DNA of 62,736 nucleotides, the filler included, from an uncultured Thermoplasmatales archaeon (lineage in GTDB: Archaea; Thermoplasmatota; E2; DHVEG-1), in assembly GCA_964517155.1 (NCBI GenBank). It is 3 parts of 3 records of this genome, joined end to end, with 100 filler letters (N's around TTAATTAATTAA, not from the genome) between each part and the next. Parts side by side here need not be neighbours in the genome. Positions count along the whole stretch, not along the records: positions 23,778 to 40,606 come from CAZFAZ010000024.1; 2 more parts are not named here. The stretch is one strand, 5' to 3'. Every line of letters begins with the position of its first letter. Position 1 is the stretch's first letter. The notes under the pieces were generated by a model that searched no databases, was not told the origin of the DNA, and worked only from the letters and a program-made list of their open reading frames with translations. The position numbers and the translations under genes were made by a program. Shown here one piece after another: positions 10,952-47,409 of this stretch.

Positions 10952-11007
10952 CAATATCTTACAAATACTAACTATGTAAAAAGATTTTGTATAAAATAAA
11001 TATCTTT

Positions 11008-23677: not shown

Positions 23678-23777
23678 NNNNNNNNNNNNNNNNNNNNNNN
23701 NNNNNNNNNNNNNNNNNNNNNTTAATTAATTAANNNNNNNNNNNNNNNNNNNNNNNNNNNNNNNNNNNNNNNNNNNN
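23678..23777. other. Artificial contig linker
   Basis: N44-TTAATTAATTAA-N44 (stops in all frames). Confidence 0.97.
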
Positions 23778-23865
23778 ATAAACTTCTAAAAGTCACTGAC
23801 AGCATCCAAATGATAGAGGGTGTAATAAAAACAACTACTCAAGTTATTGAAAAAGAGATAACATC

Positions 23866-25119
23866 ATGAAGATAAAGATAAGAAAGCGATATCTATTCTT
23901 TGTTCTTGCTTTTTCTTCAGCAATAATTGCAGCAATAGTTGCAGGTATAGATACAATTGCTGTTGAAGAAATAAAAGATCCATGGGCTGTATCTTTATCT
24001 TGTTTTATTTTAGCACTTGTTGTTTCGGGATTATGTGGATTTATCCTTTCTATTCCAATTAAAGATAAAAGTCTTGGTGGAAAAACAATTGATCCAACTT
24101 TTAAACGTTTACGGATTATCAAAAAAACAGAGCTTAAATATCATCTTTTAGCAGGTTTTGGAAATGCTATTATGACTATCGGATATTTTGCGATGTTTCC
24201 ACTTATGAATAACAATGCTGCTCTAGTTTTACCTTTTTCACAAGTTGCAATATTATACTTGATTATTACGGAGTCAATCACTGAAAAAGATACACCCACG
24301 CTTGTTGAAGTTCAATCAGCTGTAATAGTAACATTCGGTGCGATACTTGGTTCATTTAGTATTGCAGGTGCTGCTGCCAATCTTGATAATATTTTTCAAG
24401 CTTTATTGATTGTTTTTTTAGTAATTAACCCGGGAACTGTTCTTTTTAGTATATATCAGAGAAAACTCAAGATGATGAAAATAAACGAAAGACCAAATGA
24501 TGCAATAAATATCAGAGTATGGAATGTTGTTTTTGCTTTGATATTTACAATTATCATTGTTTTACTTTATGATGCTATTTATGGTGGTAATCATTTCATA
24601 GATGGCATCTCAGCTTCAATTGAAAAATTCTGGTTGATGGCATTAATCGCATTTGGAACATTCTTTGCCTTTGTATTTTATATCCGTGCTCTTGGTATTG
24701 GAAAAGCAAGTGTAACACAAGCTGTAAAAGCATCATCAATTATTTTTAGCATACCTGTTACTATGCTTATTGCAGGAGTTGCCTCTTTTATTTCAGACCC
24801 AACTATGCTTGTAATCCGCGTTATGGGTATTGTACTTATGATGCTGGGTATTACAAGTTTTGCTCTTACTCTCACAAAGGCATATATCTTTATTAAAATG
24901 AATCCAGGATATCCAATTGAAGGTACCATGAAACGTTTATGGAATATTAAAGGTGTAAATAGGGTTACGGCGGTTGCAGGACAATATGATTTCATAGTTA
25001 AGATACATACACGTACACTTATCAAAGGATATGAACGGATACTTCGTAAAGTCCAAGAAATACCAGGTATTAATCAATATCGCTGGCAATCTGTTCTTAG
25101 AGAATGGGAAGATCTTTAA
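23866..25119 (+). CDS. EamA/DMT-like membrane protein fused to a C-terminal Lrp/AsnC ligand-binding (RAM) domain
   Basis: About 10 TM segments with RALGIGKASVTQAV; C-terminal KAYIFIK..IKGV..VAGQYDFIVKI..IPGI. Confidence 0.75.
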   Translation: MKIKIRKRYLFFVLAFSSAIIAAIVAGIDTIAVEEIKDPWAVSLSCFILALVVSGLCGFILSIPIKDKSLGGKTIDPTFKRLRIIKKTELKYHLLAGFGNAIMTIGYFAMFPLMNNNAALVLPFSQVAILYLIITESITEKDTPTLVEVQSAVIVTFGAILGSFSIAGAAANLDNIFQALLIVFLVINPGTVLFSIYQRKLKMMKINERPNDAINIRVWNVVFALIFTIIIVLLYDAIYGGNHFIDGISASIEKFWLMALIAFGTFFAFVFYIRALGIGKASVTQAVKASSIIFSIPVTMLIAGVASFISDPTMLVIRVMGIVLMMLGITSFALTLTKAYIFIKMNPGYPIEGTMKRLWNIKGVNRVTAVAGQYDFIVKIHTRTLIKGYERILRKVQEIPGINQYRWQSVLREWEDL

Positions 25120-25179
25120 TATTATATTTTATTTTATTAAAAAACCATTAAATAATGCTTGTTCATTCCCTTTTTTACC

Positions 25180-26622
25180 ATGTGCGGTATAGTAGGAATT
25201 ATTGGGGGAGAACCAGTTTCACGAATAATATATCATGCATTGTTTTCAATACAGCATCGTGGACAGAGTTCAGCAGGCAAATTAACCTATGATGGCAACA
25301 TTCATGTTACAAAGGATGCAGGTCTTGTCCGTGAGATTTTTAATGATGATAAAAAGATTGATACACCTGGTAAAATAGGAATTGGCCATACTCGTTATTC
25401 AACAGCAGGTATGGATGATTTAAGCTCCTTGAAGCTTAATGCTCAACCAGAATATCTTGTAAATCCTTTTCTTGCAGCTGTTCATAATGGTAACATTTTC
25501 AATGGCGCAGAAATAAGCAAAAGCGTTTCTAGAACGCCAAGAACAGAATGTGATATTCAATGGTTATTGCTTCCAATGGCTGATAAACTTTATAAAAAAG
25601 AACTAAGCACAGAGCTTATTTTTAATGCGTGTAAAGAACTTATTCATGAAGTAAAAGGTAGTTTTTCTGCGTTATTTCTTGCGGATTCAGGTGACAATCC
25701 TTTTCTTTTTGCAGTAACAGATCCATATAAGATAAGACCACTTGTTCTTGGTAAAAAAAATGGCATGTACTGTTTGACCTCTGAAACTCGTGTTTTCAAA
25801 AAAATTAATTTCGAATATGTTAAAGATATACCTGGTGGCTCAGTGATAATTATTGATAAAAACGGTAAAATTTATGAAAAACAAGTAATAAAAAGAGCAG
25901 AAAAACCATGTATGTTTGAGTTTGTTTATTTTGCAAAACCAGATTCCCGTATAAACGGCCGCAGTGTTCATCTTGTACGTGCAGAGTTAGGTAGACTCCT
26001 TGCTAGAAAATATCCTGTAAAAGCAGATATTGTAGTACCAGTTCCCGAATCAGGTCGTCATTATGCTACGGGTTATGCTCGTGAATCAGGGATTCCTTTG
26101 GATGAAGGAATTATGAAGGATAAAGATGAACGTAGTTTCATTCAACAAACACAAGAAAGCCGTGATAAAGTTGTAGAAGAAGGTCTTTCTTATCTTCGCT
26201 CGGTTTTTGACGGGAAAAGAGTTGTTTTAATAGATGATTCAATAGTTCGTGGTACAAACATACGCAAACTAATCCGCGGTTTGAAAGACGCGGGTGCAAA
26301 AGAAGTACATGTAAGAATTGGTTGCCCTCCTTTAATCGCACCTTGTTATCTAGGTATTGATATGCGTAGTAAAAAAGAGTTTATCGCTCGTGATGAAGAA
26401 GGCAACATCAAAACATGGGATGAAATTGGAAAAGAAATCGGTGCAGATTCTTTGGCTTATACTAGTATTGATAGTTTAACTGAGGCAATTGGGTTTGACA
26501 CATGCAAAGGCTGTATCGATTTTCCTGAGGGTTATCCTGTTGAATGGAAGAAAGATGTACTTAAAATGTTTAAAAACGATAAAAAAGGCGTACGTGCCTA
26601 TGATGTATGCAACGGTAATTAG
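25180..26622 (+). CDS. purF: Amidophosphoribosyltransferase
   Basis: MCGIVG, QHRGQ, GHTRYST, HNGN, CMFEFVYF, VLIDDSIVRG. Confidence 0.96.
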   Translation: MCGIVGIIGGEPVSRIIYHALFSIQHRGQSSAGKLTYDGNIHVTKDAGLVREIFNDDKKIDTPGKIGIGHTRYSTAGMDDLSSLKLNAQPEYLVNPFLAAVHNGNIFNGAEISKSVSRTPRTECDIQWLLLPMADKLYKKELSTELIFNACKELIHEVKGSFSALFLADSGDNPFLFAVTDPYKIRPLVLGKKNGMYCLTSETRVFKKINFEYVKDIPGGSVIIIDKNGKIYEKQVIKRAEKPCMFEFVYFAKPDSRINGRSVHLVRAELGRLLARKYPVKADIVVPVPESGRHYATGYARESGIPLDEGIMKDKDERSFIQQTQESRDKVVEEGLSYLRSVFDGKRVVLIDDSIVRGTNIRKLIRGLKDAGAKEVHVRIGCPPLIAPCYLGIDMRSKKEFIARDEEGNIKTWDEIGKEIGADSLAYTSIDSLTEAIGFDTCKGCIDFPEGYPVEWKKDVLKMFKNDKKGVRAYDVCNGN

Positions 26623-26643
26623 TTAAAATGCTTGGTTTTTTTT

Positions 26644-26949
26644 ATGATTGAAATAAACCGCGGTACATTAGATGAACAAATAATTAAGATTTTACAAAAA
26701 ACGTATCCTGTAACTGTTGAAGAAATTAAAATAAAACTTCATCTTTCAAAACAACAAATCCTGCGGGCTTTACAAAAGCTACAAGTCAAAGGTATAGTAC
26801 AGCTTGAACCACTACCAAATAAAACATATATTAGACTTCTTAGAAATGATTTTAGTTTTATTGCTAAAAAAAGACAGCGTAAATTTATAAAACATTCAAA
26901 GACTAAAACACATAAATCAAAAGATTATGATGGAATGATGTATTCCTAA
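26644..26949 (+). CDS. Winged-helix protein with C-terminal MYS tail
   Basis: YPVTVEEI..LHLSKQQILRALQKLQVKGIV wHTH pattern. Confidence 0.7.
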   Translation: MIEINRGTLDEQIIKILQKTYPVTVEEIKIKLHLSKQQILRALQKLQVKGIVQLEPLPNKTYIRLLRNDFSFIAKKRQRKFIKHSKTKTHKSKDYDGMMYS

Positions 26950-27032
26950 TAAAGTGGCTCAACAACATTTACCCAGATTATGGGTATGTCTTTTGGGGTT
27001 TTTGTCTTAATTTTTTTGTTTTTCTTTTTCAT
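26946..27032 (-). CDS. Candidate 28-aa small protein MKKKNKKIKTKTPKDIPIIWVNVVEPLY
   Basis: ATG after purine-rich GGGATAGGA; TTTATATA box about 35-40 nt upstream; 4-nt convergent stop overlap with the wHTH gene. Confidence 0.3.
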   Translation of the reverse strand: MKKKNKKIKTKTPKDIPIIWVNVVEPLY

Positions 27033-27125
27033 TCCTATCCCTAGCTTATATTTTGTAGCTTTTAGTATATAAATTTTGTTTAGTATTTTAGCATTTAAAC
27101 TAAATTACAATTAACCAAAAAAGGA

Positions 27126-27527
27126 TTATCCTATTATCTGTATAACTTGATTATTTACAACAAGAAACTCTTTAAGCTCCTCAGAATCCTTAAATTTTTT
27201 TAATAAATCATAATCTAAAACATGTTCATAACGAGATATAACTCGGCTTCCACTAGGGCTCCAACTTGCAATCTCAACTTCTTTTAAATCAAAACTTTTA
27301 ACACTTCCAAGAATCGTAAAAGACTCTGTTCTAATCTTATAATCACACTTGGTACATTCAATGATACTGTCATAGGCTACATATGGATTTTGATAATCTT
27401 GTATTGGATCAAGCTGTATCATAATCATTTTACTGCCACATTTTGGGCAAGCCATAGATTCTTCACTGTTTCTAGACCATAACTTTGAAACAACATTCAT
27501 ATTTTTTTTATTATAACCTGTAGCCAC
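27126..27527 (-). CDS. Hypothetical zinc-finger protein
   Basis: CPKCG..CTKC. Confidence 0.65.
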   Translation of the reverse strand: MATGYNKKNMNVVSKLWSRNSEESMACPKCGSKMIMIQLDPIQDYQNPYVAYDSIIECTKCDYKIRTESFTILGSVKSFDLKEVEIASWSPSGSRVISRYEHVLDYDLLKKFKDSEELKEFLVVNNQVIQIIG

Positions 27528-27657
27528 CCTGATCCAACCTACTATATATGTAACCTTCTACCATAAATAGTTTTTCGTAAAAAAACATGTGTTTTTAGCA
27601 TTCATAGTTATATAATAAAAAAATATTACTAAGAGAAGTATTTGAGGAGTAGATTTC

Positions 27658-28452
27658 ATGAAAATTATAACTTTTACAACAGATTTTGGAATAAATAGTA
27701 ACTATCTTGCTCAGATGAAAGCAGTAGCATTATCATTTGCTCCCGATGCAAAACTGATTGATATAACGCATAGCATTTCAAATCATAATATCTTGGAGGG
27801 TGCATATTTTTTACAAACAACTGTTCCATATTTTCCAGAGGGAACTGTGCATGTAGCGGTAGTAGACCCAGGTGTTGGCAGTAATAGACGAGCAATTATA
27901 GTTGCTACAAAAACACAAATATTAATAGGTCCAGATAATGGTCTTTTAATCCCGGTGGCAAAAAAACTTTTTCCATTTCAGGTTTATGAAATAAAAAACC
28001 AAAAATTTATGCTTAAAAAAATCTCAAATAATTTTCATGGGCGAGATATTTTCACACCGGTTGCAGCACATATTCTAAATGGTGTTTTATTTGAAGAAAT
28101 AGGGCCAATTATCCATGATTATATTGATTTAAAACTCGAACAAGCAGAGATAACAGATAAATATGCAACAGGAAAAATACTTTTTATTGATGATTTTGGA
28201 AATATAATTACAAATATTCAAACTCAACATATCTTGCAAAAGTTTTTAGAGCCAGGTAAAAAATTTATGGTTTTTATAGGTAAAACAAGAAAAGAAATAC
28301 CTTTTGCTAAAACTTATACTGATGTTAAAAAAGCAGCACTTCTTATAACAAATAGCAGCAGTGGATATTTGGAGATTTCTGCAAATCAAAGCAAAGCAAG
28401 TGAAATCTTAAATGTTAAGCCGGGTGAAGAAATAAAGATATTATTTGGTTAA
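27658..28452 (+). CDS. SAM hydrolase / SAM-dependent halogenase (DUF62) family protein
   Basis: TFTTDFG, IDITH, VHVAVVDPGVGS, GPDNG, FHGRDIF, IDDFGNIITN. Confidence 0.93.
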   Translation: MKIITFTTDFGINSNYLAQMKAVALSFAPDAKLIDITHSISNHNILEGAYFLQTTVPYFPEGTVHVAVVDPGVGSNRRAIIVATKTQILIGPDNGLLIPVAKKLFPFQVYEIKNQKFMLKKISNNFHGRDIFTPVAAHILNGVLFEEIGPIIHDYIDLKLEQAEITDKYATGKILFIDDFGNIITNIQTQHILQKFLEPGKKFMVFIGKTRKEIPFAKTYTDVKKAALLITNSSSGYLEISANQSKASEILNVKPGEEIKILFG

Positions 28453-29000
28453 AACTCTTTTTTGATATCACTAATAGTAGTATAGATATTACTTCCAAGG
28501 TAATAGCAAGGTTGAACTTTTTTGTTATTTAGTATATCTTTTTCAAAAGCAGATTCATCTATTTGCGTATTTACAACTTCTCCAACAAAAAACGTGTGAT
28601 CTCCTAGCTTAACTGATTTGTAGAGTTTGCATTCAAGATTTGCATAGCATTCATTTATAATTTTGGTTTTAATTTTCTTTGAATTAGAAAAAGTCAAACC
28701 AGTTTCTTTTATTTTATCTGTGTTTCTTCCACTTTTTGTTCCACAGAAATGAATTTTTTCTACGATTTCATATGGTGCAAAATTTATCGAAAATTCTTTT
28801 GATTCTGTGATTAGTTTATATGAAAATCTACTCGGAGCTATTGAAACGCCGTACAACGCAGGTTTTTTAGAAATTGGCGTATGCCATGCAACAGTAATCG
28901 GATTTGTTTTCCCGTTTTTATCTATACATGTAAGAATTGCTGCTTGCATTGGAAAAGCATATTGATAAAATTTTTCTCTATCTCCTGTTTTTTTAACCAT
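28449..29000 (-). CDS. Flavin reductase family protein
   Basis: CGTKSGRNTDK, ANLECK, GDHTFFVGEV. Confidence 0.9.
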   Translation of the reverse strand: MVKKTGDREKFYQYAFPMQAAILTCIDKNGKTNPITVAWHTPISKKPALYGVSIAPSRFSYKLITESKEFSINFAPYEIVEKIHFCGTKSGRNTDKIKETGLTFSNSKKIKTKIINECYANLECKLYKSVKLGDHTFFVGEVVNTQIDESAFEKDILNNKKVQPCYYLGSNIYTTISDIKKEF

Positions 29001-29010
29001 TTATTTCACC

Positions 29011-29232
29011 TTAAAATTTAATTATTGCATCTAAAAGACCATGTGCATAATTAATGCAGCCAAAACTAGTAAAATAATCTTTTTTATCTTTGTAGTATTT
29101 TGAATCCTCATAATATTGTGTTGCAAGCTTTATTGTTTTTTTTTGAGAACTTGTTAAATCTATTTTTTTTGTTTCTTTTATGTTTTCTTCAAACATTACT
29201 ATGTCTTTTTGAATGCGTGTTTTTTCATCCAT
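29011..29232 (-). CDS. DUF357 family protein
   Basis: YYEDSKYY..D..TSFGCINYAHGLLDA. Confidence 0.85.
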   Translation of the reverse strand: MDEKTRIQKDIVMFEENIKETKKIDLTSSQKKTIKLATQYYEDSKYYKDKKDYFTSFGCINYAHGLLDAIIKF

Positions 29233-29312
29233 AAAAATTTTACAATAAAAAAGTACTAAAATACTTTATGATAAAGTTTTTAGAAAAAATTAAAAAAAAT
29301 AAAAGAGGTGTT

Positions 29313-31427
29313 TTATAATGGTTCAAAAGTTGGTTGGAAAAGGATAAACTTTCCAATCAAAAATCCGCTGAATTCTTTTTCTACTTCATATTCTCCAATA
29401 CTGGCTTTTATTTTTCCAGTAATTTTTCCAAATCCTGCGCCTATTGAACCTGCTCCAGAATTAATCTTTTCTAGATCGTCGCTTTCTATATCGACTGTTC
29501 CATTTGCAGATACATTTACTTTACCAAGCATTCCACCAGTTGCAGTTATTTCCCAGTCAATATCTGCTAAATCATCTTCACCATAGTTTTCTATACTTGC
29601 AGAAATCATTCCTCTTGAAAACATTGGGAGGGTTATACGAAGATCTATTGGATTTTCAATGATTGTTATTTTATGTGGGTAATATGACCAGTCGCTTTGT
29701 ACACCATTTTCATCTTTTGCTTTTGCATATACTTCATATACATCTGCTTGAGTGTATGTATGTTTAAGTGTTATCTCTTGGCTGCTATTTGATGGGCCAA
29801 CCCATATACCTTCTGATTCATCACCCCAATCAATCATATAGTATACTTGATCTCCATCTGGATCAGTGGTTTTTACTTTTATTTGGATTTCTTCGCCTAA
29901 ATCTGCAATAGTATCACCAGTTACACCAGGTGCACTTGGTGGACAGTTTCCATCTGAGTGTATAAGAACTTCATCTTCCATGAAAAAGTTAGGATCTTGT
30001 GTGCAACCAATTTTCCCGCGTACATTTGCATAATTGTAGAATTCTTTTTCGCATTCGCATAACGGACATCCACTAACGCTTATACCTGTTACAATTGCAT
30101 CAAATTCTATGACGATTGTATCTCCATCTTTTACTGTGATGCCTGTTAAGTTCCACCAAATATGCTTGCTATCATTTGAAACTTCTACATACTTTTCTAT
30201 GTCTTCAATGTTTGAATAAAGATTATTAGCATATTCAAGTATGCAAGGAAGCTCATCATAGAATTGAACTTCTTCTAAATCTTCGGCACCATAATAATCA
30301 AGCTTTAATCTGAATCTAAGTATACTTCCTTTAGTTGTTTGTATTTCATCAACCCATTCTTCAGATTTTTCATCCCAGACTAGTTTTTCAAATGTTGTTT
30401 CTTGTGGTGTACAGTCAACTGATGCGTTATCTTGCCCATAAAACGTAGGTCCGCTGCAGCCCCAAGCTTTAACGTAAACCCAGTTTTCATCAATTTCTTT
30501 ACAGTAGTTTGTAACAACGGCATCAAATTCAATGATTAAACTATCTCCGCCATTTAATGTTACTTCGTTATTATATGTCCAATCCCAGATTATTTCTTTT
30601 TTATCAGAAGATACTGTGATATCAGCAGGTTGTGCTGCTCCATTTCCGGTTGTTGTAACTACACTAGAACCATTAACGTATTCAAGACAGCATGGTAAAT
30701 AATCTGTGACTATCATATTTTTTATCACATAATCATCACAAGCATGATATATAATCTCAATTTTGAATTTTACAATATCTCCTAATGTAAGGTCACCAAT
30801 GTATTCGGCCCATGCAGTTCCATTCCATACTTTTTTTATAACTTCGATTCCTGGTTCGCATGGTTCTTCACATTCGACAAAAACAGTTGCATAATCATGA
30901 CCATATAATGGTTCATTGCTACAGGTTTCTTTGCCAGTTACATATACATTGTTTACATTTTCTCCGCAGTCAACTACTGTTGCATTAAACTCTATGCTTA
31001 CCACATCTGGACCAGATTCTGGATTAAGATATAATTCAATGCCATAATCTTCTGTTAAATTCCACCATATATTTTTACCATCTACAAAACTTTCGCCATA
31101 GTATGTGTCTTCTCCAAATGTTATTACTGCATCGTTTGCATATTCAAGACATGTAGGAAGTTCATCCATTACAACTAGATTTGTAGCTTTATATCCTGCG
31201 GGTAAAACTTGATCATAATCTATAACTATTTTAAATCTAACTGTGTCTTCAAATTCTGCATTAATACTATCTGTCCAACTGCATCCATCCCAAACGGTTT
31301 TTTCAACACTGAGGTTTTCTTCGGTATCACTTGCAGTTAATTCATTTGCGTTTACAGACATTGCACTAAATGCAGATGCGATCATCAAAAGCGTCAATAA
31401 TATACTTATTGCTGTTTTTTTATTCAT
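29313..31427 (-). CDS. Secreted Cys-rich surface protein: three DUF11/Ig-like repeats, a PKD-like domain and a C-terminal beta domain
   Basis: Signal peptide; three repeats of K.VW..W..V.FKI..D.LP.CLEY..IEFDA.V; DPDGDQVYYMIDWGD. Confidence 0.8.
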   Translation of the reverse strand: MNKKTAISILLTLLMIASAFSAMSVNANELTASDTEENLSVEKTVWDGCSWTDSINAEFEDTVRFKIVIDYDQVLPAGYKATNLVVMDELPTCLEYANDAVITFGEDTYYGESFVDGKNIWWNLTEDYGIELYLNPESGPDVVSIEFNATVVDCGENVNNVYVTGKETCSNEPLYGHDYATVFVECEEPCEPGIEVIKKVWNGTAWAEYIGDLTLGDIVKFKIEIIYHACDDYVIKNMIVTDYLPCCLEYVNGSSVVTTTGNGAAQPADITVSSDKKEIIWDWTYNNEVTLNGGDSLIIEFDAVVTNYCKEIDENWVYVKAWGCSGPTFYGQDNASVDCTPQETTFEKLVWDEKSEEWVDEIQTTKGSILRFRLKLDYYGAEDLEEVQFYDELPCILEYANNLYSNIEDIEKYVEVSNDSKHIWWNLTGITVKDGDTIVIEFDAIVTGISVSGCPLCECEKEFYNYANVRGKIGCTQDPNFFMEDEVLIHSDGNCPPSAPGVTGDTIADLGEEIQIKVKTTDPDGDQVYYMIDWGDESEGIWVGPSNSSQEITLKHTYTQADVYEVYAKAKDENGVQSDWSYYPHKITIIENPIDLRITLPMFSRGMISASIENYGEDDLADIDWEITATGGMLGKVNVSANGTVDIESDDLEKINSGAGSIGAGFGKITGKIKASIGEYEVEKEFSGFLIGKFILFQPTFEPL

Positions 31428-31730
31428 TTTGTTTTTCCCCCAATAATTTTTATATTTTGGATAGGATTTCCATATATTTATATACTAAATACTATATAAA
31501 TATTCCTATCATATTATAATTATATTTACCTATTATTTTACATCAAAAATAACTTTATATATCTAACGGTTATTTTTTAAATAAAAATCAGTTAATTTTA
31601 ATTTATATCATAGTATATAATACATCTTTCAATAAGTTAGAAAATATTAAATTTTTCCTAGAATCTTAGATATACAATTGATATATTATCTTTTTTTACT
31701 ATAGCTGGTATTTGTTTAAACTTAAACAGA

Positions 31731-34700
31731 TCAGGATTCTTGCATAGAATAATTCAATCCAAAATTAATCATGAAAACATTCATCTCCTGAGTAACAACT
31801 TCACTTTGACCATATGCAACTACTTTTATTGTATAAATGCCAAATGCAAATTCATTGAAAACAAATATATGTTCCTCTGTAATATTATGTTTAAGTTCAT
31901 TGTTTATATAATACTCCACTTTATTTACTTCAGAAAGACCTGTTTCATTTAAATCTAATTCTATAGTAACAGGACCTATTGTTAATGCATTATACTCAGT
32001 GTTTTCAAATAAAGCACTTATATCAATTATAGGTTTATCCCATAAATATAAGTATCCTTCTTTTGGATTTTTAATAATACTTGGTGATCTTTCTGTAACA
32101 AACACAGTTACAGATCCTACATCATATTTACCCTTATTATCTGTTATATTATAGCTAAATACATCTATTCCGACAAAACCTGGATTTGGTGTATAAATAA
32201 CCCTGCCATAACTTATTTCTACTGTGCCGTTACCGGGTTGAGTCTGGATTTTATTTAAACTTATAGGATCGCCATCTGGGTCATAATCATTATCCAATAC
32301 ATCGATTATGTTATTTGTACTATTCTCAAAAGCATAAGCTACATCATCAACTGCTACAGGTGGACTATTAAATAACACTTCATATACTGTAATGTAAACT
32401 GTTGCAGTTGAGTAGGCATTTTTTCCATCTGAGATATTATATACAAAACTATCAAAGCCTATATAATCTGTGTTTGGATTATAATTTATTTTATCTGAGA
32501 ATACTGTTAGAGTTCCATGTTCTGGATAAACATTTATTCCTTGTATAGTTAATATATCATCATCAAGGTCGTAATCATTTTCTAAAACATATATGTCAAC
32601 AGATGTATTTTTTGCAGTGCTTATATTATCATTTACGGCTACAGGTGCGTTATTCGAATCAAACACAGTGATATAAACATCTGCGATAGATTTAGCATTA
32701 GAATTGTCAAGAATCATATATCTAAAGTGATCTTCTCCTATAAAACCAGAGTTTGGCGTATAATATATTATTTCATCGGTATATGTTACAGATCCGTTAT
32801 TTGGATCAGATACTGTAGCTATCCTAATTGTATCTTCAGGATCCTCATCTACATCATTTTCTAAAACATTTAAAATGTTATCAACAGAGTTTTGTAAAAC
32901 GCTGTAATAATCAGTATTTGCAATAGGTGGGTGATTTGCAGGTTTGGGCAAAACTTGAACATTTGCAGTGTCTTGTACATCTATTGTTAGTTCTGAAGCA
33001 AATTCAGATGATTCTTTAAATATACCTATAACTCTTGCTAGATTATCCTCTAGACCAGGTGCTGTTGCAAGTGAATCAAATTCTATTGTGATAATATCGC
33101 CTATATACAAGTCTTGGAATTTCCATAATAAAACATCTGGGTGAATATCAGGCTCGTTTGGTGTGGAATTACCTTGATATGAAAGAATCTCTGCAGGTAA
33201 ACTATCGGTAATTGCTAATTTTGTGAAATTTACTTCTCCATCGTTTTCAACAATTATTCTAAATCTTACTGTTTCGCCTTCTTGAATAGTAGTATTTTCT
33301 TCCCAACTACTTGTATCTTTGTTGAAAACTTTTTTGCAAATATGAAGTGATGCATTTGCCTCTTCAGAATTTGAAGAAATATAAATCTTTACTGTTTGTT
33401 TGTTAGTTAAGTTTATATCATTCATGCTTTGTTCATATTCTTCTATATCTAAATTTAATGTGTGTATCTCTTGTTGATAATCTGTTTGCTGGGATTCCAA
33501 GTCTTGGATGTCCAAAATTATTTGTTGAGAGTGTATGGTATTACTTTCTAACAGAATATTAAAATCTTCTAATTGTGTAGAAAGATAATTGTTGCTTTCT
33601 TGAATTCCTAAAAGAACATTATTACGGCTAGCGATTTGTGTATGAAGTCCTGCTTGTTGTTCAACTGCAGATGTCTTAAGTATCTGTAATGTTTGTTTTT
33701 CTTCAAGTTTTGAGTATTTTAATGTCACAAAATCAGACAAAACTATGTTTGCATCTGTTAAATCCCTCTGAGTTGTTTGCATCTCCTGTGTTTTTTGAAC
33801 TATATTTACTTCAGTAATCGACTTTTGTTCTAATAAGTCATTAAGAGTTTGTTCTCCTTGATTTATATTTTCCAGTGCTGTTTGTAATTCAGCAGATATA
33901 GCTGCTAACTCGGCTTCTTTGTCTGTAAGAATATTTTGCTTATCGACGATAAAAGTATTCTTATCATTTATTAGTTGTTGAGATTCTAAAATTTGAGCGT
34001 CTAATAGATTTTTTTGCTCTTCTTTTGTTGTTTTTAAATTTATTAGGCCCGTAATTGTTGCATTTTGATTTTGTATATCAGATTCAAACTGTATTTTCTG
34101 CAGATTATATGTATCTATATTTGCTTCTAAAAGTGAGATATCAGTTAATGATTGCTGCTTCTGCAGAGATAATGTATCTAAATTATTTTGAATGTTTAAA
34201 CCTGTTTGCTGATTTGCAGGAATTAATGATTGTATACTTTCAAGATCTTGTTCATAAGTGGCTTTTGAGATAGATAATGCATTTAAATCCAAGTTTAATG
34301 CGTCTATTTGTGGTTCTATTTGAGCAATAACTTCTTCTAAATATATCTTCTGACTTTGAACTGTAGATATTTCTGATTCAAGAGCTTGCTCATCGTTTAT
34401 CGATTGATCTAATGTATTATGTAGAAGTAATTGGCTTTCTTGGTTAGTTGAAAGTTGATCTTGAATATTTGATAGTGATTGTTCATATGTTATTTTATCA
34501 CTTAAAAGAGAGTTTACGATGAGTTGTTGAGCATTTAGCTGTGAATACAATAAAGATTTTTGCTCTTCATAATTTAGTATTTGATTTTCTATACTAGATA
34601 CATCGTTTAGCAGACTTTGCTTTTGTAATATTAATTGGTCTGATTCATCTAAAAGTAAGTAGTATGCATCTCTATTTGCTGATATTTGAGCGGCTATATC

Positions 34701-37700
34701 TGTAAGAGTGTTTTCATAATAGACTTGATCAGAATGTAACAAGTCAAGATCTGTTTGTAGACCTGATATTGCACTATTAAGTTGAGTTTCTTGCGAACCT
34801 AAAATTGTAAGTTGTTGTTCAAAGCCTGTAATTTTTATCTCGTTTGTTGTTTCATCATTGTATAGCTGTGCCAAAGTGCTTTGGATATCTGCAATTGTTG
34901 CTTGAACATTTGCTTTTTGTTGTTCAAGATTTAAAATATCTGCTTCTTTAACTGAAATTAAATTCATTAAATCTGTAGTTACTTGGTTGTTCTCTGATAG
35001 ATATGTTAATATCTGGTTGTATTCTTGCTGTAGTTGAGAAAGTATTTGTTGCTCTGCAGATAAACTTGCTTGCAGAGTTGTTTCTATATTATTTTGATCT
35101 TGGAGTAAAGTTTGTTTTATAAGTATTTCATCAGAGTTTGCTTGCATATCAGCTTGTATTTGTGTTATCGCAGTTTCTAAACTTGCGATTTCGTCTTGTA
35201 AAGCCGTTAGTTGTAATTGTGTTTGATCTTTTTGTGAAGTTGTTAGAGTTATTTGCTGAGAAATTGAATTTATGTCGCTGTTTAAACTTATTTGTTGTGT
35301 GTCAAGTTGATTCAGGATGTTTTGTATGGATGTTTTTTCAGAGTTAGCTGTTTGAAGTTGATTATTTAAATCAGCTAATATATCATCTGAAGCTTGAATC
35401 TGGGAAAGATATCCATCTATTGTTGCATCATTCTGACTCAAATCTGATAAAAGTTGTTGATATTGTTGGTTTAGTTGGCTCAATGTTGCTTGCTCATTTG
35501 TTATTGTTTGTTGGAGACTTATACATAAATTTCCCGCGTCTGTAAGTTCTAATTGTTTTGTATCTATTGATGAAATTGCATCTGCAAGATTCTGCTGATA
35601 AGTTGCTAAATCGGAATTCAAAGTAGTAATTTCTGTTTCTGCAGATAGTATACTTGCTTCAAGGTTCGATTTTGCAGTGTATAAAACCTGTAATTCTGCA
35701 TCTATACTTTGAATATTTGTCTGGCTATCTGCTTGCTCAACTAGTTTTTCATCAAGGCTCAAGCTTAGGCTGTTGTACTGCTGTTGGAGTTTTATATGAG
35801 TATTTACAAGATCGTCTTTTTCTACTAAACAAGACCTAATGATATTTTCTTTATCTGTTATTTGTATGCTTATTTGGCTTATCGATGATTCTTTCGAATC
35901 TATTTCGGTCTGTGTTTGTATTATTTCATCTTCATTTAAAACAGGATCGGTTATTAAATTGCTTAGATGTTTTTCAAGGTCTGAGAGCTCTTGTTCTTCA
36001 GTTGCTTTTTGGGTTTCTAATGTGGTTAAAGTAGATGATTCTATCTGAATTTCTAATTCTTTCTCATCTATTGCAATTTGATTGTTTTGCAACTCTATTT
36101 CTTTATCTGATATCTTAGTATTTAATAATGTTATATCTGCGTTTATATCGCCTAATAAAAGTTGCTCCTGGCTTTTTTCTGACTCTTTTATGTAAATATC
36201 ATTTATTTTGTTAGCTAGTTCATTTTCAAGATTGATTTTTTCTTGCGTTTTTAATGGGAGTTGTGTGTTTTCTATAGAATTTATATCTTGCTCAAGTTGA
36301 CTCTTTGTTGATTGTAGTTGTTTTATTTCTTGCTCGATTGTACTCTGATCATTTTGAGCTGTACTCAGTTGGTTTTGTACGTCTGTTATTAAAACATTCT
36401 GCTGGTCTATTTGATTTGATAAATCGGTTAGATCCTGATTTGTTAATTGCTGACTGTCTAGCTCTTGTTGAAGTAAAGCCTTTAGATCGTCATTATTTGC
36501 CTGCTCAGCAAATAATTGTTGCTCTAAACTTGCTATTAAATCAATCTTATTTTGAAGCAAAGCTTGATTTTGTGCTATTTGATCGTTGACTGAAATTAAT
36601 GATGTTTGTTTGCTTGCAAGTGTTTGCTCAAGGGAAAGTATGGTGTTTTCATAATCTTGAATTTGTAAAATAAGTTGATCTGCTTGTTGATTTTTTGTAG
36701 AGATTTGTATGGTCTTTAAAGCAATGCTTTGTTGAAGTTGATTTTGTGTTGATTGTAGTTGTTGTATTGCTTGTTGTATAGTATTCTGTTCGTCTTGTGC
36801 TATTGTTATCTGGTTTTGTATCCCTGAAATTACTGTTTGTTGCTGTTCCATTTCAAATTGTTTATCTGCTAATTCTTGATTATTTAGCTGTTGATCTGCT
36901 ACTTCTTGTTGCAGTTGTTGTTGTAAAAGACTGTATGCATCTTGTTCTTGGACTAAACTTTGTTGCAGGCTATCAAGGATGTTTTGTTTTTCTAAAAGAA
37001 GTGTTTCTTGAGAAGCAATTTGAGTTAATGTATCTTGTAGTAGTTGTTCTTCTGCTGTTTTTAATGAGTTTGTATTTTGTATCTGAGCTAATATGTCATC
37101 ATAATGAGATTGTTTTTGTGTAAGACTTGCTGTTTTTGTATCTATTTGTGCTAATGTATCTTGTAATAGTTGGTTGGTTTGTGTTTCTTGGTCTATCAGG
37201 TCATTATATTCTACTGAGTTTTGATTCATCTGTTGTGTTTTAATTTGTATCGATGTTTGTACGCTCTGTAAACTCTGAGAAGCAGTAGACAAATCATTTG
37301 TTAAACTCGTTATTTGGCTTTCTAAGTTTTGCATATCTGCTTGAAGTTGGGATAAAACTTGTTCTTCTGCTGCAATAGAGCTTATAGCTGACTGTAGGCT
37401 CTGTTGAGCCGAAGCTTCTTGTGCGACTAATTGACTTTCTAGAGATGTTAAATCATTTAATTGTTGTGTTGTTTGTTGTATCGAATCCTGCAGATTTTGT
37501 AAATCGATTGTTTGAGTATTTAAGTTAATATCCAAATCAGCAAGATTTTGATTTGCTGTCTGAAGTTCTGTTTCAAGTTGGTTTAACTCATTTGTATTTA
37601 GATTTATCGCATCTATATCTGCTTGTAACTCTTGTTGCAAAGTTGTTTGTTGTGCTATAAGCTGGTTGTACTCTTGTGTATTTTGACTTAGTTCTTGTGT

Positions 37701-39002
37701 AACTTGTTGAATATTTGCATCAAGATTTGCAAGATTTTGTGTTTCTGTTGCAAGATTATTGGATGCAGTATCTATTTGTTGAAGGGTATCTGAATATGAT
37801 GTTTGCATTTGTGACAGGCTTTGCGTTTCTTGTTGTATCTGTGTTTCTAGAGAACTAATCTCTGATGTTAAATCGTTTTGTAGAGTAATCATTGAATCAA
37901 GATTTGCTTGTTCAACTGCAAGTTCATCTTCTGCAGTTTGTATCGTTTGAATTAATTGAGCTATTTCAGTTTCAAGATTAGATTGTGAATCGATTAAACC
38001 TTGTACATGCTCTTGATTTGCATCTGAGTTTTCTAGCGCTGTTTGTATTTCCAAGTTTATGTTGTTTAAATCTTGCTCTAGGCCTTGTAGCGTTTGAATT
38101 TGTTCATATGTTAAATCTTCAAGATATGTTACTGTATTTTGCTGATTTAAGATTTGATTATCTAAACTTTCTAGTTCTAAATTTATACTATTTATGTTTT
38201 CATCTAAATTAAGAATATTGTCGTTTATTAGTTCAAGATTAGAATTTAAAGATGTTATCTCTTCATTTAAACTTATGATCTGTATCCCTAGGTTATCTAT
38301 ATCTTGGATTATAGATTGTATATTTTCATTTAGTGACTCGATTTCGCCAAGTATGCTGTTGTAATCTTCTTGATTTTTATATATCTGTAAATTTATCAAA
38401 TCTAGTTGATTTATCTTATCAGTTAGTAACTGTTTCATTAAACTAAGTTCTTCATAATATTTTGAATGTATTTCTGCTGTTGCAGCAACTGTGTTTTCTA
38501 TACCTGTAAGAGTTGTTTCAGCAAGTGCTATCATGTTATACTCTATGTATATTTTTTCTTCTGTGTTTAAACTGTCAAAAAAAACTACTAAAGTATTTTC
38601 AATAAGTTGATTAGTTGAAATTTTGCTTACATAAAGTGTTTCTTTTAAAAAACCTAAATTCTGTTCAGAGGGTAATACGTTTATGATTTTGATATTTGTA
38701 AGATCATAATTTTTAATATTTTCTATTGTTATTCTAAATCTTATTGTTGTCCCGATTTCTACTTTTATTTCATTGTCCCAATCATTATTGTTGATTTCAA
38801 TATCATTTATCTTTGTTGCCTGTATTTTTATGTCTATTGCTTTGTTTCCTTGGATATCAACATTATTTATTATTTCATGTATATCATCTATAGTGATTAA
38901 ATTTGTATGAGTTAGGCTTTCTGCAGTAACAAATGATGACGATAACAAAGTAAGGGACGTCAGAAAAACAATTATGCTTTTTATTTCTTTTTTCCTATTC
39001 AT
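31731..39002 (-). CDS. Giant secreted protein: DUF11-like domain with inserted ~1,680-aa Gln-rich coiled coil, second DUF11-like domain, three cadherin-like/Ig repeats, C-terminal domain
   Basis: Signal peptide; IRFRITIEN and VRFRIIVEN DUF11 strands; continuous heptads; three N.PP.A..D..VL.ND.D repeats; ATG 39002 after GGTGA. Confidence 0.85.
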   Translation of the reverse strand: MNRKKEIKSIIVFLTSLTLLSSSFVTAESLTHTNLITIDDIHEIINNVDIQGNKAIDIKIQATKINDIEINNNDWDNEIKVEIGTTIRFRITIENIKNYDLTNIKIINVLPSEQNLGFLKETLYVSKISTNQLIENTLVVFFDSLNTEEKIYIEYNMIALAETTLTGIENTVAATAEIHSKYYEELSLMKQLLTDKINQLDLINLQIYKNQEDYNSILGEIESLNENIQSIIQDIDNLGIQIISLNEEITSLNSNLELINDNILNLDENINSINLELESLDNQILNQQNTVTYLEDLTYEQIQTLQGLEQDLNNINLEIQTALENSDANQEHVQGLIDSQSNLETEIAQLIQTIQTAEDELAVEQANLDSMITLQNDLTSEISSLETQIQQETQSLSQMQTSYSDTLQQIDTASNNLATETQNLANLDANIQQVTQELSQNTQEYNQLIAQQTTLQQELQADIDAINLNTNELNQLETELQTANQNLADLDINLNTQTIDLQNLQDSIQQTTQQLNDLTSLESQLVAQEASAQQSLQSAISSIAAEEQVLSQLQADMQNLESQITSLTNDLSTASQSLQSVQTSIQIKTQQMNQNSVEYNDLIDQETQTNQLLQDTLAQIDTKTASLTQKQSHYDDILAQIQNTNSLKTAEEQLLQDTLTQIASQETLLLEKQNILDSLQQSLVQEQDAYSLLQQQLQQEVADQQLNNQELADKQFEMEQQQTVISGIQNQITIAQDEQNTIQQAIQQLQSTQNQLQQSIALKTIQISTKNQQADQLILQIQDYENTILSLEQTLASKQTSLISVNDQIAQNQALLQNKIDLIASLEQQLFAEQANNDDLKALLQQELDSQQLTNQDLTDLSNQIDQQNVLITDVQNQLSTAQNDQSTIEQEIKQLQSTKSQLEQDINSIENTQLPLKTQEKINLENELANKINDIYIKESEKSQEQLLLGDINADITLLNTKISDKEIELQNNQIAIDEKELEIQIESSTLTTLETQKATEEQELSDLEKHLSNLITDPVLNEDEIIQTQTEIDSKESSISQISIQITDKENIIRSCLVEKDDLVNTHIKLQQQYNSLSLSLDEKLVEQADSQTNIQSIDAELQVLYTAKSNLEASILSAETEITTLNSDLATYQQNLADAISSIDTKQLELTDAGNLCISLQQTITNEQATLSQLNQQYQQLLSDLSQNDATIDGYLSQIQASDDILADLNNQLQTANSEKTSIQNILNQLDTQQISLNSDINSISQQITLTTSQKDQTQLQLTALQDEIASLETAITQIQADMQANSDEILIKQTLLQDQNNIETTLQASLSAEQQILSQLQQEYNQILTYLSENNQVTTDLMNLISVKEADILNLEQQKANVQATIADIQSTLAQLYNDETTNEIKITGFEQQLTILGSQETQLNSAISGLQTDLDLLHSDQVYYENTLTDIAAQISANRDAYYLLLDESDQLILQKQSLLNDVSSIENQILNYEEQKSLLYSQLNAQQLIVNSLLSDKITYEQSLSNIQDQLSTNQESQLLLHNTLDQSINDEQALESEISTVQSQKIYLEEVIAQIEPQIDALNLDLNALSISKATYEQDLESIQSLIPANQQTGLNIQNNLDTLSLQKQQSLTDISLLEANIDTYNLQKIQFESDIQNQNATITGLINLKTTKEEQKNLLDAQILESQQLINDKNTFIVDKQNILTDKEAELAAISAELQTALENINQGEQTLNDLLEQKSITEVNIVQKTQEMQTTQRDLTDANIVLSDFVTLKYSKLEEKQTLQILKTSAVEQQAGLHTQIASRNNVLLGIQESNNYLSTQLEDFNILLESNTIHSQQIILDIQDLESQQTDYQQEIHTLNLDIEEYEQSMNDINLTNKQTVKIYISSNSEEANASLHICKKVFNKDTSSWEENTTIQEGETVRFRIIVENDGEVNFTKLAITDSLPAEILSYQGNSTPNEPDIHPDVLLWKFQDLYIGDIITIEFDSLATAPGLEDNLARVIGIFKESSEFASELTIDVQDTANVQVLPKPANHPPIANTDYYSVLQNSVDNILNVLENDVDEDPEDTIRIATVSDPNNGSVTYTDEIIYYTPNSGFIGEDHFRYMILDNSNAKSIADVYITVFDSNNAPVAVNDNISTAKNTSVDIYVLENDYDLDDDILTIQGINVYPEHGTLTVFSDKINYNPNTDYIGFDSFVYNISDGKNAYSTATVYITVYEVLFNSPPVAVDDVAYAFENSTNNIIDVLDNDYDPDGDPISLNKIQTQPGNGTVEISYGRVIYTPNPGFVGIDVFSYNITDNKGKYDVGSVTVFVTERSPSIIKNPKEGYLYLWDKPIIDISALFENTEYNALTIGPVTIELDLNETGLSEVNKVEYYINNELKHNITEEHIFVFNEFAFGIYTIKVVAYGQSEVVTQEMNVFMINFGLNYSMQES

Positions 39003-39381
39003 AATTTTAATCACCAAGATAAAATCTTTCTACTATAACTAAATATGTTGTTTATAATATAAATAAGTTTTTATAAAGTTATAAAAAGTTTATTATACAA
39101 ATATAACCAAAAAAATAAAAATTTATATATTTTAAACTGCCATTTGCAATTATGTATTTGTTTCTCAGCATCGTTTTAGCAACACATAAGAATGCAGTTA
39201 AGATAGTCGGTCGGTAGCATTTGCAATCTATGAATCTAGTAATGTTAGTGCACCGTCAAAATCATTAGTTATAAAACATCTTCTTTTGTTTTCTCCGATA
39301 TTTGATATTTCGTGGTATTTTTTTCATCTTTTAATAGTTTTTTAGGCATAATTTCGTCGTCTTAATTCCGATTTAATGTTT

Positions 39382-39400
39382 TGTCGTTTTGCAGACGACA
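39382..39400. promoter_or_regulatory. Inverted repeat TGTCGT-N7-ACGACA, candidate operator
   Basis: Lies just upstream of a TATA-like TATTTAAA (39412-39419) ahead of the HTH gene. Confidence 0.35.
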
Positions 39401-39471
39401 TAATAGAAAACTATTTAAACCTACAAAACAACATTATTATTAAAAAAAATTAATAAAAATGGTGCAATTTA

Positions 39472-39873
39472 ATGCAGAGATCAGGTTTAAAATCAGATAA
39501 AAACATCGAAAAAACAATTCGTGATATACTTAAATCTAAATCTAGATCTTGCATTTATGCATATCTTTTAAGAAGAAATGGTGCAAAAACAGAAGAAATT
39601 GTAAGAGGGACTAAACTTCATCCAAGCACTGTTCGCGAAACACTCTCCAAGATGCATTCTCAAAAACTAATCTACAGAAAAAAAATAAAAAACGAAAACA
39701 TAGGAAAAAACCCATATCTTTATTATCCAATACCGCCAATTGAGCTTTTAAAAAGATACACAAAGGATATAGAAGACAGGCTAAATAAACTAGCAAATAT
39801 CGCGATTCCAAAAGAAAATCATGACGATAGTCTTGCAGTTAAAATAAAAATATATAGGGGTGTGAAACAATGA
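39472..39873 (+). CDS. TrmB/ArsR-like winged-helix transcriptional regulator
   Basis: SRSCIYAYLL..EEIVRGTKLHPSTVRETL..GKNPYLYYPIPP. Confidence 0.8.
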   Translation: MQRSGLKSDKNIEKTIRDILKSKSRSCIYAYLLRRNGAKTEEIVRGTKLHPSTVRETLSKMHSQKLIYRKKIKNENIGKNPYLYYPIPPIELLKRYTKDIEDRLNKLANIAIPKENHDDSLAVKIKIYRGVKQ

Positions 39874-40606
39874 GGATTGGTATTAAAACCCTTGCAAACC
39901 TACTCACAAAAAGACCCCGAACAGTAATACTTTTGTTTGTTATTTTTACTGCACTAATAGGTTCACAGGCACAAAACCTTTACATGGTTTCAGATTATTC
40001 AAAATATTTACCACAAGATGACCCTACACTTATGCTTTGGAATGAAATCAATAAAGAATTTAATATAGGATCGACTATAATTATAATTATTAATCAAAGT
40101 GGAAGGGCATATGATGATATTAGATGTCCCGAAATACTTGTCGAAATGGATGAAATATACCGGGTTTTATACGAAAATAGGATAAATCGTGGTGAAAAAA
40201 CAGATATTACTTCAATAAAAAGCCTTTCTGTTCTGATAAGACAAGAAAATGCAAAACCAAAACCCGAGGGTAACAATGATAACAGCATTCCAAAAGATAA
40301 AAATGATGTTTACACTTATATGGAGCGCTTGTCAATCAGCAGTATGAAAGGCATATTATATACTGATGATTACGAATATGCTATTATAATAATCCAATTA
40401 GAGGATAACGCAGATTTTGATGAAGTTCTTAAAATAACCCAGGATGCAGTTGAAAACCGCGGTGTAAAACATGCACACATGACAATCACTGGAACAGTCG
40501 CAATGCAAAAAGCAATACAGCAAAAAAGCATGCAAAATATGGTAATAATATTCCCAATAGCAATTATACTTGTTTCAGCTGTTATTTTCTTTTTCCACAG
40601 AAGTGT
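39870..40606 (+). CDS. RND/MMPL family transporter, N-terminal part (truncated by gap)
   Basis: TM1, YLPQDDP, extracytoplasmic loop, ITGTVAM, TM2 ending FFHRS. Confidence 0.82.
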
Positions 40607-40706
40607 NNNNNNNNNNNNNNNNNNNNNNNNNNNNNNNNNNNNNNNNNNNNTTAATTAATTAANNNNNNNNNNNNNNNNNNNNNNNNNNNNNNNNNNNNNN
40701 NNNNNN
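40607..40706. other. Artificial contig linker
   Basis: N44-TTAATTAATTAA-N44. Confidence 0.97.
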
Positions 40707-47306: not shown

Positions 47307-47409
47307 ATTTTTCACCTAAATTCCTTATAGTCGTTATAAGTATTTAAAAGCCTGGAAAATGTTTGGAAAAAACCAAACAAAGCATACGCTAAAAAGTTAA
47401 TAATTTTAT

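Follow-up and report, generated by a model that had tools for sequence, protein, structure and literature searches.

A predicted exported archaeal protein whose Ig-like domain is very probably split by a giant antiparallel coiled-coil hairpin with length-matched arms

Antiparallel coiled-coil stalks are already known as a class, and here we describe a giant protein that is very likely to carry an exceptionally long one. Its gene lies in 62,736 nucleotides of DNA from an uncultured Thermoplasmatales archaeon (assembly GCA_964517155.1), a stretch which we refer to as the window. Among the described systems, the arms of SMC and Rad50 proteins extend over about 50 nm. In an earlier study, SMC-type arms are given as approximately 50 nm long and folded at a hinge (PMC2141774). 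The arms of SMC, Rad50 and MukB resemble those predicted for the window's protein in forming a long intramolecular antiparallel two-helix coil from length-matched halves that lie far apart in the sequence. However, the former belong to ATPases of the cytoplasm that have ABC heads at their base and, at their tip, a hinge or a zinc hook, whereas the window's protein has a putative signal peptide, an Ig-like base and a bare turn, and its arms of 840 residues are about 2.5 times longer. NCBIfam models matched its coil only, and the scores stayed far below the cut-offs (SMC_prok_B 133.6, cut-off 567; SMC_prok_A 107.6, cut-off 729; Rad50 models 18-20, cut-offs of at least 1000). Pfam detected no ATPase domain in the giant protein, and its apex is a loop of seven residues, TDPVLNE, with neither hinge nor zinc hook. 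An SMC-like ATPase was rejected for the lack of heads.

The enterococcal surface exclusion protein PrgA (6z9l) shares with the window's protein an extracellular two-helix antiparallel coiled-coil stalk on the cell surface. The PrgA coil measures 385 Å and is called the longest bacterial two-helix coiled coil in the PDB in its description (10.1101/2020.06.18.156562). PrgA carries a CAP domain at the tip and a C-terminal anchor in the Gram-positive wall and is unrelated in sequence, whereas the window's protein has an empty tip, a rod that is about three times longer and emerges inside an Ig-like domain, and an archaeal host; neither an LPXTG motif at its C-terminus nor a CAP domain (Pfam) was found. 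In the membrane-fusion or periplasmic adaptor proteins AcrA, HlyD and EmrA, an antiparallel hairpin is set into a small beta domain and varies in length by multiples of the heptad. Compared from general knowledge, these adaptor hairpins differ in being about 5-13 nm long, in emerging from a lipoyl domain and in docking on TolC-type channels, and no HlyD-type Pfam family matches the giant protein. Colicin Ia, the dynein stalk and streptococcal antigen I/II likewise build a long stalk of two strands from one chain that goes out and back; in antigen I/II, an alpha-helix is paired with a polyproline helix, and the repeat numbers are matched between the two strands. These three systems, which span 10-50 nm, hold a functional domain at the far end, whereas the tip of the window's rod is empty. 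On archaeal surfaces, tetrabrachion and the SlaB-type S-layer stalks form long coiled-coil rods (about 70 nm in Staphylothermus), which, again compared from general knowledge, are parallel, built from several chains and equipped with a C-terminal membrane segment, whereas the window's protein would be a single-chain hairpin inserted into a domain. In the open-access library searched, we found no description of a DUF11 or Ig-like domain that is interrupted by a coiled-coil hairpin, and no giant extracellular archaeal antiparallel coil. What appears to be new is the combination of extreme length, insertion in an Ig-like domain, an empty tip, an archaeal extracellular setting, mirrored insertions and deletions, and the purging of N-glycosylation sites. 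If the prediction holds, we know of no longer single-chain antiparallel coiled coil (about 125 nm, compared to 38.5 nm for PrgA).

The gene occupies 31731..39002 on the minus strand, as do all features of the giant protein given below, and encodes 2423 residues from an ATG at 39002 to a stop codon at 31731-31733. The open reading frame (ORF) as tracked in the window (31731..39017, minus strand) is counted from a TTG at 39017 and comprises 2428 residues; residue numbers in this text follow this longer frame. The true start is likely to be the ATG at 39002, with a GGTGA 8 nucleotides upstream and a signal-peptide-like N-terminus behind it (38919..39002, residues 6-33), which was recognised by eye from its basic residues, hydrophobic stretch and the sequence VTA-ES. 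In the architecture that we propose, the chain would exit the first Ig-like domain just before its last strand, run out as an alpha-helix of about 837 residues, turn at a proline-containing loop of seven residues, return as a helix of about 843 residues packed antiparallel via the a/d seam, and then contribute the last strand that is missing from the first Ig-like domain. The predicted rod would measure about 125 nm (837 residues at about 0.148 nm each); its tip would be bare, with all globular parts at the base, i.e. a second DUF11 domain, three cadherin-like repeats and a C-terminal Ig-like domain. We regard the combination of this architecture, export and arm matching as very probable, and in the following we present the evidence for it.

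The heptads and AlphaFold2 (AF2) models delimit an outgoing arm (35955..38465, residues 185-1021), the turn TDPVLNE (35934..35954, residues 1022-1028) and a returning arm (33405..35933, residues 1029-1871). A first-pass annotation of the window had proposed heptads from about residue 186 to 1866, and this was borne out: two heptad registers follow each other, one from about residue 173 to 922 and one from about 952 to 1877, and residues 186-1866 contain just four prolines (921, 1025, 1569 and 1600) and 17 glycines. Spectrin-like bundles were rejected since there are too few helix breakers. Hydrophobic residues make up 57-76% of the a/d positions, compared to 17-29% of the other five positions (b, c, e, f and g), and such a narrow seam is, as far as can be judged from the sequence, that of a two-stranded coil. 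The coil is composed of 16.5% Q, 15% L, 10% I, 9% N, 9% S, 8.6% T, 8.4% E, 7.2% D, 3.5% K and 0.2% R. It is thus nearly devoid of basic residues; many of the lysines lie in the core (at position a of the returning arm, K ranks third in frequency), and the surface is formed by Q, N, S, T, D and E. The nine sequence motifs quoted in the first-pass annotation were all found in place, among them those marking the repeats discussed below (LQQSLVQEQ, residue 684, position 36968; LEQQLFAEQ, 831, 36527; QQTITNEQ, 1169, 35513; QASLSAEQ, 1316, 35072) and the turn region LITDPVLNEDE (residue 1021).

The interruption of the first DUF11-type Ig-like domain became apparent from its comparison with the second one. 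Without its last strand, the first domain covers 38466..38885 (residues 45-184) and is conserved in eight homologs. It shares 36% identity with the second domain over 39 residues in a segment BLAST, and the two also correspond in a full-domain alignment, in which the first domain follows the second up to '...AEIHSKYY', where the second domain has one further strand. The closing strand NKQTVKIYISSNSE (33363..33404, residues 1872-1885), of which the pattern is kept in homologs, would complete the first domain, so that this domain is not contiguous and has its last strand about 1690 residues beyond the remainder. The uninterrupted second DUF11-type domain follows at 32943..33350 (residues 1890-2025) and was recognised with Pfam and NCBIfam models. 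In the protein as a whole, TIGR01451 reached 45.3 bits (cut-off 24) over two stretches, the best of which is 1908-1951, and Pfam DUF7507 scored 23.8 bits, which is below its cut-off of 27.

The tip of the rod was modelled with AF2 on residues 850-1350 using an alignment of seven sequences, whereby the turn was purposely placed off-centre, at 35% of the fragment. The model had a mean predicted local distance difference test value (pLDDT) of 85.5 and consisted of helices at model residues 11-172 and 180-431, separated by a break at 173-179, which corresponds to residues 1022-1028 of the ORF and is the sole helix break in the high-confidence part of the model. The pLDDT stayed within 86-97 as far as about model residue 340, at which point the returning helix has no more partner, and was 47-80 further on. 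A second fold-back of the unpaired overhang (432-457) had a pLDDT of 47-63 and serves as an internal control. A helix-breaking turn near the midpoint of the coil, as suggested beforehand, was hence recovered although it was off-centre in the fragment. Its proline is conserved in six of the seven aligned full-length homologs and in two further ones, P0003 and P0028. In a Foldseek search with the tip model, the top four matches at E ≤ 0.001 were Rad50 (7zr1, two chains), the MukB elbow (6h2x) and the Pyrococcus Smc coil (5xg2), and later matches included dynein stalks and chemoreceptor hairpins.

For the base of the rod, residues 36-330 and 1725-1890 were submitted to a two-chain prediction alongside three controls, all of them unrelated proteins. 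The pair scored 0.70 (runs: 0.70, 0.69 and 0.70), compared to 0.00 for the best of the three controls. A score of 0.70 was attained by 116 of 157 solved complexes and by two of 215 mismatched pairs, which is a rough calibration since own alignments were used. Contacts agreed to at least 97% between runs, and the partner had a pLDDT of at least 88. The contacts of lowest error followed a sum of chain positions of about 293 (286-297), i.e. an antiparallel arrangement with an ORF residue sum of about 2052. As this is close to the sum of about 2050 implied by the tip, the two models point to no net slip along 840 residues. Residues 1867-1884 (NKQTVKIYISSNSE...) contacted residues 49-67, 81-94 and 164-183 of the Ig-like domain; the domain alignment and the docking of this strand thus both agree with the earlier proposal that the coil interrupts the first DUF11-like domain before its last strand. 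From the two-helix hairpin predicted at the tip and the antiparallel pairing predicted at the base, we conclude that the intramolecular antiparallel rod of the first-pass annotation is upheld at the level of structure prediction.

A short homolog, P0028 (1224 residues), could be modelled across the complete hairpin (AF2 on residues 31-820, mean pLDDT 78). In the model, beta strands (15-136) led into helices (139-379), which were followed by a turn with the sequence SNPQGK (380-385), further helices (386-628), a strand directly behind the returning helix (633-643) and a second domain. PrgA (6z9l) was match 9 for this model. Breaks of low confidence occurred at 213-230 and 534-552, which mirror each other (sum of about 765).

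We identified homologs by searching the N-terminal 200 residues against 117 other genomes of the same order. Full-domain matches were obtained in giant ORFs of G047, G048, G051 and G052 and weaker ones in G011, G046, G079 and G014 (working labels); an exhaustive profile search added P0003, P0028, P0033, P0088 and P0080. A word-indexed protein search with residues 30-215 returned nothing at E ≤ 0.001 among proteins of similar or shorter length, and a query with the single N-terminal domain against a collection of genome contigs found no relative. A non-coding low-complexity artefact was ruled out, as the reading frame is unbroken and homology extends over at least 12 sequences.

In each protein, the arms were measured from the coil start, marked by an S/P-K-Y motif, to the turn and from there to the closing strand. 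The outgoing and returning arms comprise 840 and 849 residues in the window's protein, 839 and 847 in each of G047, G048, G052 and G051, 838 and 844 in P0003, 755 and 761 in P0033, 753 and 762 in P0088, 685 and 695 in G046, 649 and 663 in G014, 493 and 506 in P0080, and 242 and 251 in P0028. The count is restricted to complete coils, which leaves aside G079 (contig end), G011 (two contigs with a run of N) and the fragments P0038, P0057, P0074 and P0079, and P0045, of which the protein is identical to that of G014, was counted once. Hence, while arm length varies 3.5-fold (242-840 residues), the difference between the two arms is 6-14 residues in all 12 complete coils. The symmetry about the turn that had been anticipated for insertions and deletions was also seen in one closely related pair. 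G014 and P0080 are 80-85% identical, and their coils differ solely by two gaps of 154 residues, G014 525-678 and 940-1093, which are placed symmetrically around residue 809, compared to an aligned turn at 805 and a geometric midpoint at 812. An assembly collapse is an unlikely source of these gaps, since the flanking repeat copies are just 41-50% identical. Among six orthologs that share 37-79% coil identity, no coil insertion or deletion exceeds two residues, and all larger differences in length stem from the copy number of the cadherin-like repeats. We noted that G046 and G047/G048 belong to one genus, and apparently to one locus, with arms of 685/695 and 839/847 residues, respectively. Identity to the window's protein is about 26% for G046 and 42% for G047, although G047 is also of another genus than the window; the divergence of the gene apparently does not track genome taxonomy.

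The tip itself is a proline loop of 5-7 residues in most homologs, an irregular stretch without proline in G014 and P0080, and a low-complexity loop of 47-49 residues rich in S, P, G and D in P0033 (residues 937-985) and P0088 (residues 930-976). None of the 12 proteins carries an inserted domain at this point.

The coil also contains internal repeats. A self-BLAST of the whole protein returned the identity match only, and the repeats that had been claimed for both arms, with a period of 147 residues, emerged from segment BLAST, Smith-Waterman and profile self-comparisons. In the outgoing arm (36129..37271, residues 583-963; 147 residues being 21 heptads), residues 677-778 match 824-926 with 43% identity (E 9e-16, segment BLAST), and this pair stands out among all in-phase segment pairs (z = 8.9, Smith-Waterman). 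In the returning arm (34737..35651, residues 1123-1427), residues 1129-1274 match 1276-1421 with 32% identity (E 8e-8, segment BLAST); here the signal is weaker when the protein is taken as a single sequence (z = 3.8), and with a profile of five orthologs the returning pair reached 113.8, compared to 116.9 for the outgoing pair and a background of about 48-55. DNA identity at the offset of 441 nucleotides is 0.51 in the outgoing and 0.46 in the returning arm, compared to 0.36 at offsets shifted by ±21 nucleotides. Profile self-comparison and segment BLAST moreover detected a tandem array of 77-residue units (11 heptads) in the outgoing arm (36948..37964, residues 352-690), and an array of such units is also present in the returning arm (33798..34922, residues 1366-1740). 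With a mirror centre at a residue sum of about 2051, the outgoing array of 77-residue units is projected to 1361-1699 (observed 1366-1740) and the outgoing 147-residue zone to 1088-1468 (observed from 1123 to at least 1427).

Within the lineage of the window, the copies of the 147-residue repeat correspond to each other by position as orthologs: first copies are 52-53% identical across species, whereas first and second copies within a species share 34-40%, from which we conclude that these duplications are older than the species. G046 has its own 147-residue pair in each arm, with local identities of 61-81% (outgoing) and 68.5% (returning), and each of its copies resembles its own partner more closely than it does any unit in the window's protein; by sequence comparison, these pairs would represent either independent events or homogenised copies. 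The returning arm of G014 contains direct copies of blocks from its outgoing arm, located close to the mirrored position. We propose that lineages would have lengthened or shortened the two arms by blocks of equal size, at mirrored sites and in multiples of seven residues (77, 147 or 154), since both arms must span an equal distance and changes in length would survive only if matched. The family may thus be read as a natural record of compensatory length evolution, with mirrored 154-residue insertions or deletions, older 147-residue duplications and a nearly absolute conservation of length within a lineage, and it bears on the keeping of register in long coiled coils, which has so far been studied chiefly in SMC proteins.

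The coil is also depleted of N-glycosylation sequons. Between 33405 and 38465, there is a single N-x-S/T site, compared to 21.0 ± 3.7 expected and a minimum of 12 in 300 shuffles that preserved the heptads. Ten of the 11 other homologs have 0-2 sequons in the coil (2-29 expected). The depletion concerns all heptad positions, including the a/d seam. As controls, we counted five related motifs (S/T-x-N, N-S/T, N-x-x-S/T, Q-x-S/T and D-x-S/T) in six proteins: 27 of the 30 tests were within about 2.2 standard deviations of the expectation, including all five in the window's protein, and the exceptions were the highly repetitive G014 (N-S/T, z = -3.1; N-x-x-S/T, z = +4.3) and G052 (D-x-S/T, z = -2.2). 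In the globular parts, sequons occur at or above expectation (14 compared to about 10.8 in the window's protein). Archaeal N-glycosylation targets exported chains. Together with this, the sequon pattern provides independent evidence that the rod would be extracellular and would have to stay free of glycans. The purge of N-x-S/T could also serve as a signature to find other unglycosylated extracellular structures in archaea.

Several observations weigh against the architecture proposed here. The models and the comparative sequence analysis from which it is predicted are both computational. The controls of the base model were unrelated proteins and not coil segments in a wrong register, so that its score alone is silent on the specificity of the register. 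When the core hydrophobicity of one arm was correlated with that of the mirrored other arm, no clear peak emerged (r = 0.16 at a sum of 2045, the second best value, and r = -0.16 at 2052). As the six orthologs with arms of about 839 residues are alike by descent, the 12 coils correspond to about 6-7 independent length classes. In addition, the markers of turn, start and end were picked by motif and alignment, and the turn of G014 and P0080 from the alignment alone. With respect to sequons, G046 does not follow the depletion (12 observed, 18.1 expected).

At the base, the second DUF11 domain is followed by three cadherin-like or Big_9 ('tandem-95') repeats (32082..32939, residues 2027-2312), which scored above the cut-offs over three stretches with each of four models (PF17963 155.8, cut-off 23.6; PF17803 116.9, cut-off 25.1; PF17892 95.7, cut-off 26.5; NF012211 110.9, cut-off 90); orthologs have 3-5 copies. 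The C-terminal Ig domain (31734..32081, residues 2313-2428) is Big_7-like, with E 0.054 for Big_7, which is below the cut-off, and 0.90-0.93 to Big_7 clusters in a feature search. This domain of about 115 residues (...FMINFG) also terminates many other ORFs of 200-1400 residues across the genomes of this order, with several such ORFs frequently on one contig, and it may be a common module for surface attachment or export. It is shared by many secreted ORFs of related genomes and is the only candidate for an anchor.

Regarding the function of the protein, we tentatively suggest, with less than even confidence, that the rod could act passively, standing out from the cell surface as a glycan-free structure of defined length that serves as a stand-off spacer or provides reach. 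This is favoured by the tip without a domain, the constant length within a lineage, the stepwise differences between lineages and the glycan-free surface. On the other side, the analysis identified no anchor, ligand or partner, and the tip carries no domain. To our knowledge, very little has been described of the cell surface of the uncultured Thermoplasmatota that carry the family. A stricter version, which we consider unlikely, is that the rod acts as an extracellular molecular ruler with steps of 77 residues (about 11.4 nm), its length being held to three residues over 1680 within a lineage. Such a ruler would keep a stand-off of about 125 nm around the cell, or set envelope layers or cells apart by this distance, and the rod would need to be without N-glycans for zipping up or packing. 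Changes in length would proceed via intermediates that are tolerated, since a double unit of 147-154 residues gained in one arm could fold back as a side hairpin until the other arm gains an equal block. If true, the family would lend itself to work on how antiparallel coils of great length find their register and keep it.

The same hairpin might instead assemble side by side into four-helix bundles, fibres or a lattice and thereby build a matrix, sheath or fibre. The sequon depletion at every heptad position fits glycan-free packing surfaces, a surface rich in Q, N, S, T, D and E with 3.5% K and 0.2% R would be odd for a solitary coil stabilised by salt bridges, and the conserved neighbour of the gene (see below) is a secreted multi-domain protein. 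However, the seam is narrow and the b, c, e, f and g positions are as poor in hydrophobic residues as those of two-stranded coils, and the strongly acidic surface would repel like rods unless they are bridged by cations, so that we judge lateral assembly to be somewhat unlikely. That the rod is a tether, of which the tip loop contacts a partner cell, particle or virus at a reach of 125 nm, appears improbable to us: the tip does vary by lineage, as is typical of exposed recognition sites, and the divergence of the gene is at odds with genome taxonomy, as described above for G046 and G047, but a loop of 5-7 residues offers a very small binding surface, none of the 12 proteins has gained a tip domain, and the cadherin-like repeats, which are the usual adhesive modules, are located at the base. 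Finally, a protein without any hairpin, in which separate coils pair between molecules as a parallel or antiparallel dimer or short bundles form as in spectrin repeats, is very improbable, because even though sequence alone does not distinguish pairing within from pairing between molecules, and the regular 77-residue units of G014-type relatives, which contain Gly and Asp, as well as the low-confidence breaks in the P0028 model could mark bundle boundaries, a dimer of independent segments requires neither equal arms in 12 of 12 coils nor mirrored insertions and deletions, the strand behind the coil completes the domain ahead of it in the models, the AF2 helices are continuous over 160-250 residues, and the two breaks of P0028 mirror each other, as expected of a joint in a hairpin.

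The gene directly downstream of the giant gene (29313..31427, minus strand) encodes a secreted protein of 704 residues with several Cys-rich DUF11-like domains and a PKD domain, and about 300 AT-rich bases separate the two genes in the window. Its best match lies directly 3' of the giant gene in all five genomes searched and likewise in G011, so that the neighbour is present next to the giant gene in G047, G052, G051, G046, G014 and G011, with a length of about 700-890 residues. This secreted protein may be a partner of the giant protein.

The giant gene is located on the contig that covers positions 23778-40606 of the window and is present in a single copy in the source genome (1.59 Mb, 91 contigs, 90.8% complete). 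Runs of N at 23678-23721, 23734-23777, 40607-40650 and 40663-40706 mark the joining of at least three contigs, which is why the position of genes past 40706 (HypF, serpin, HypD and others) or before 23678 does not imply adjacency to the giant gene; one ORF (39870-40658) enters an N stretch. In a separate assembly of two public DNA runs, a single contig of 10,965 nucleotides covered 31600-39200 with 0 differences; these runs may correspond to the source sample, and possibly to one data set filed twice, and thus do not count as independent support. The window contains genes of archaeal type, namely an archaeosine tRNA-guanine transglycosylase, RtcB and a TrmB/TFIIE-like regulator, and the nearest records of the transglycosylase are metagenome-assembled genomes of uncultured Thermoplasmatota (8 of 8 confirmed loci).

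Three further genes of the window are worth recording. The RtcB tRNA-splicing ligase (9083-10954, minus strand) has a weak match to Intein_splicing at residues 116-196 (35.4 bits, cut-off 35.8). A protein of 968 residues (11008-13914, minus strand) combines a zinc ribbon and DUF7898 with five helix-hairpin-helix (HHH_5) stretches. A full-length serpin (Pfam Serpin, E 1e-118) is encoded at 46032-47315 (minus strand) in this archaeal genome, on a contig other than that of the giant gene.

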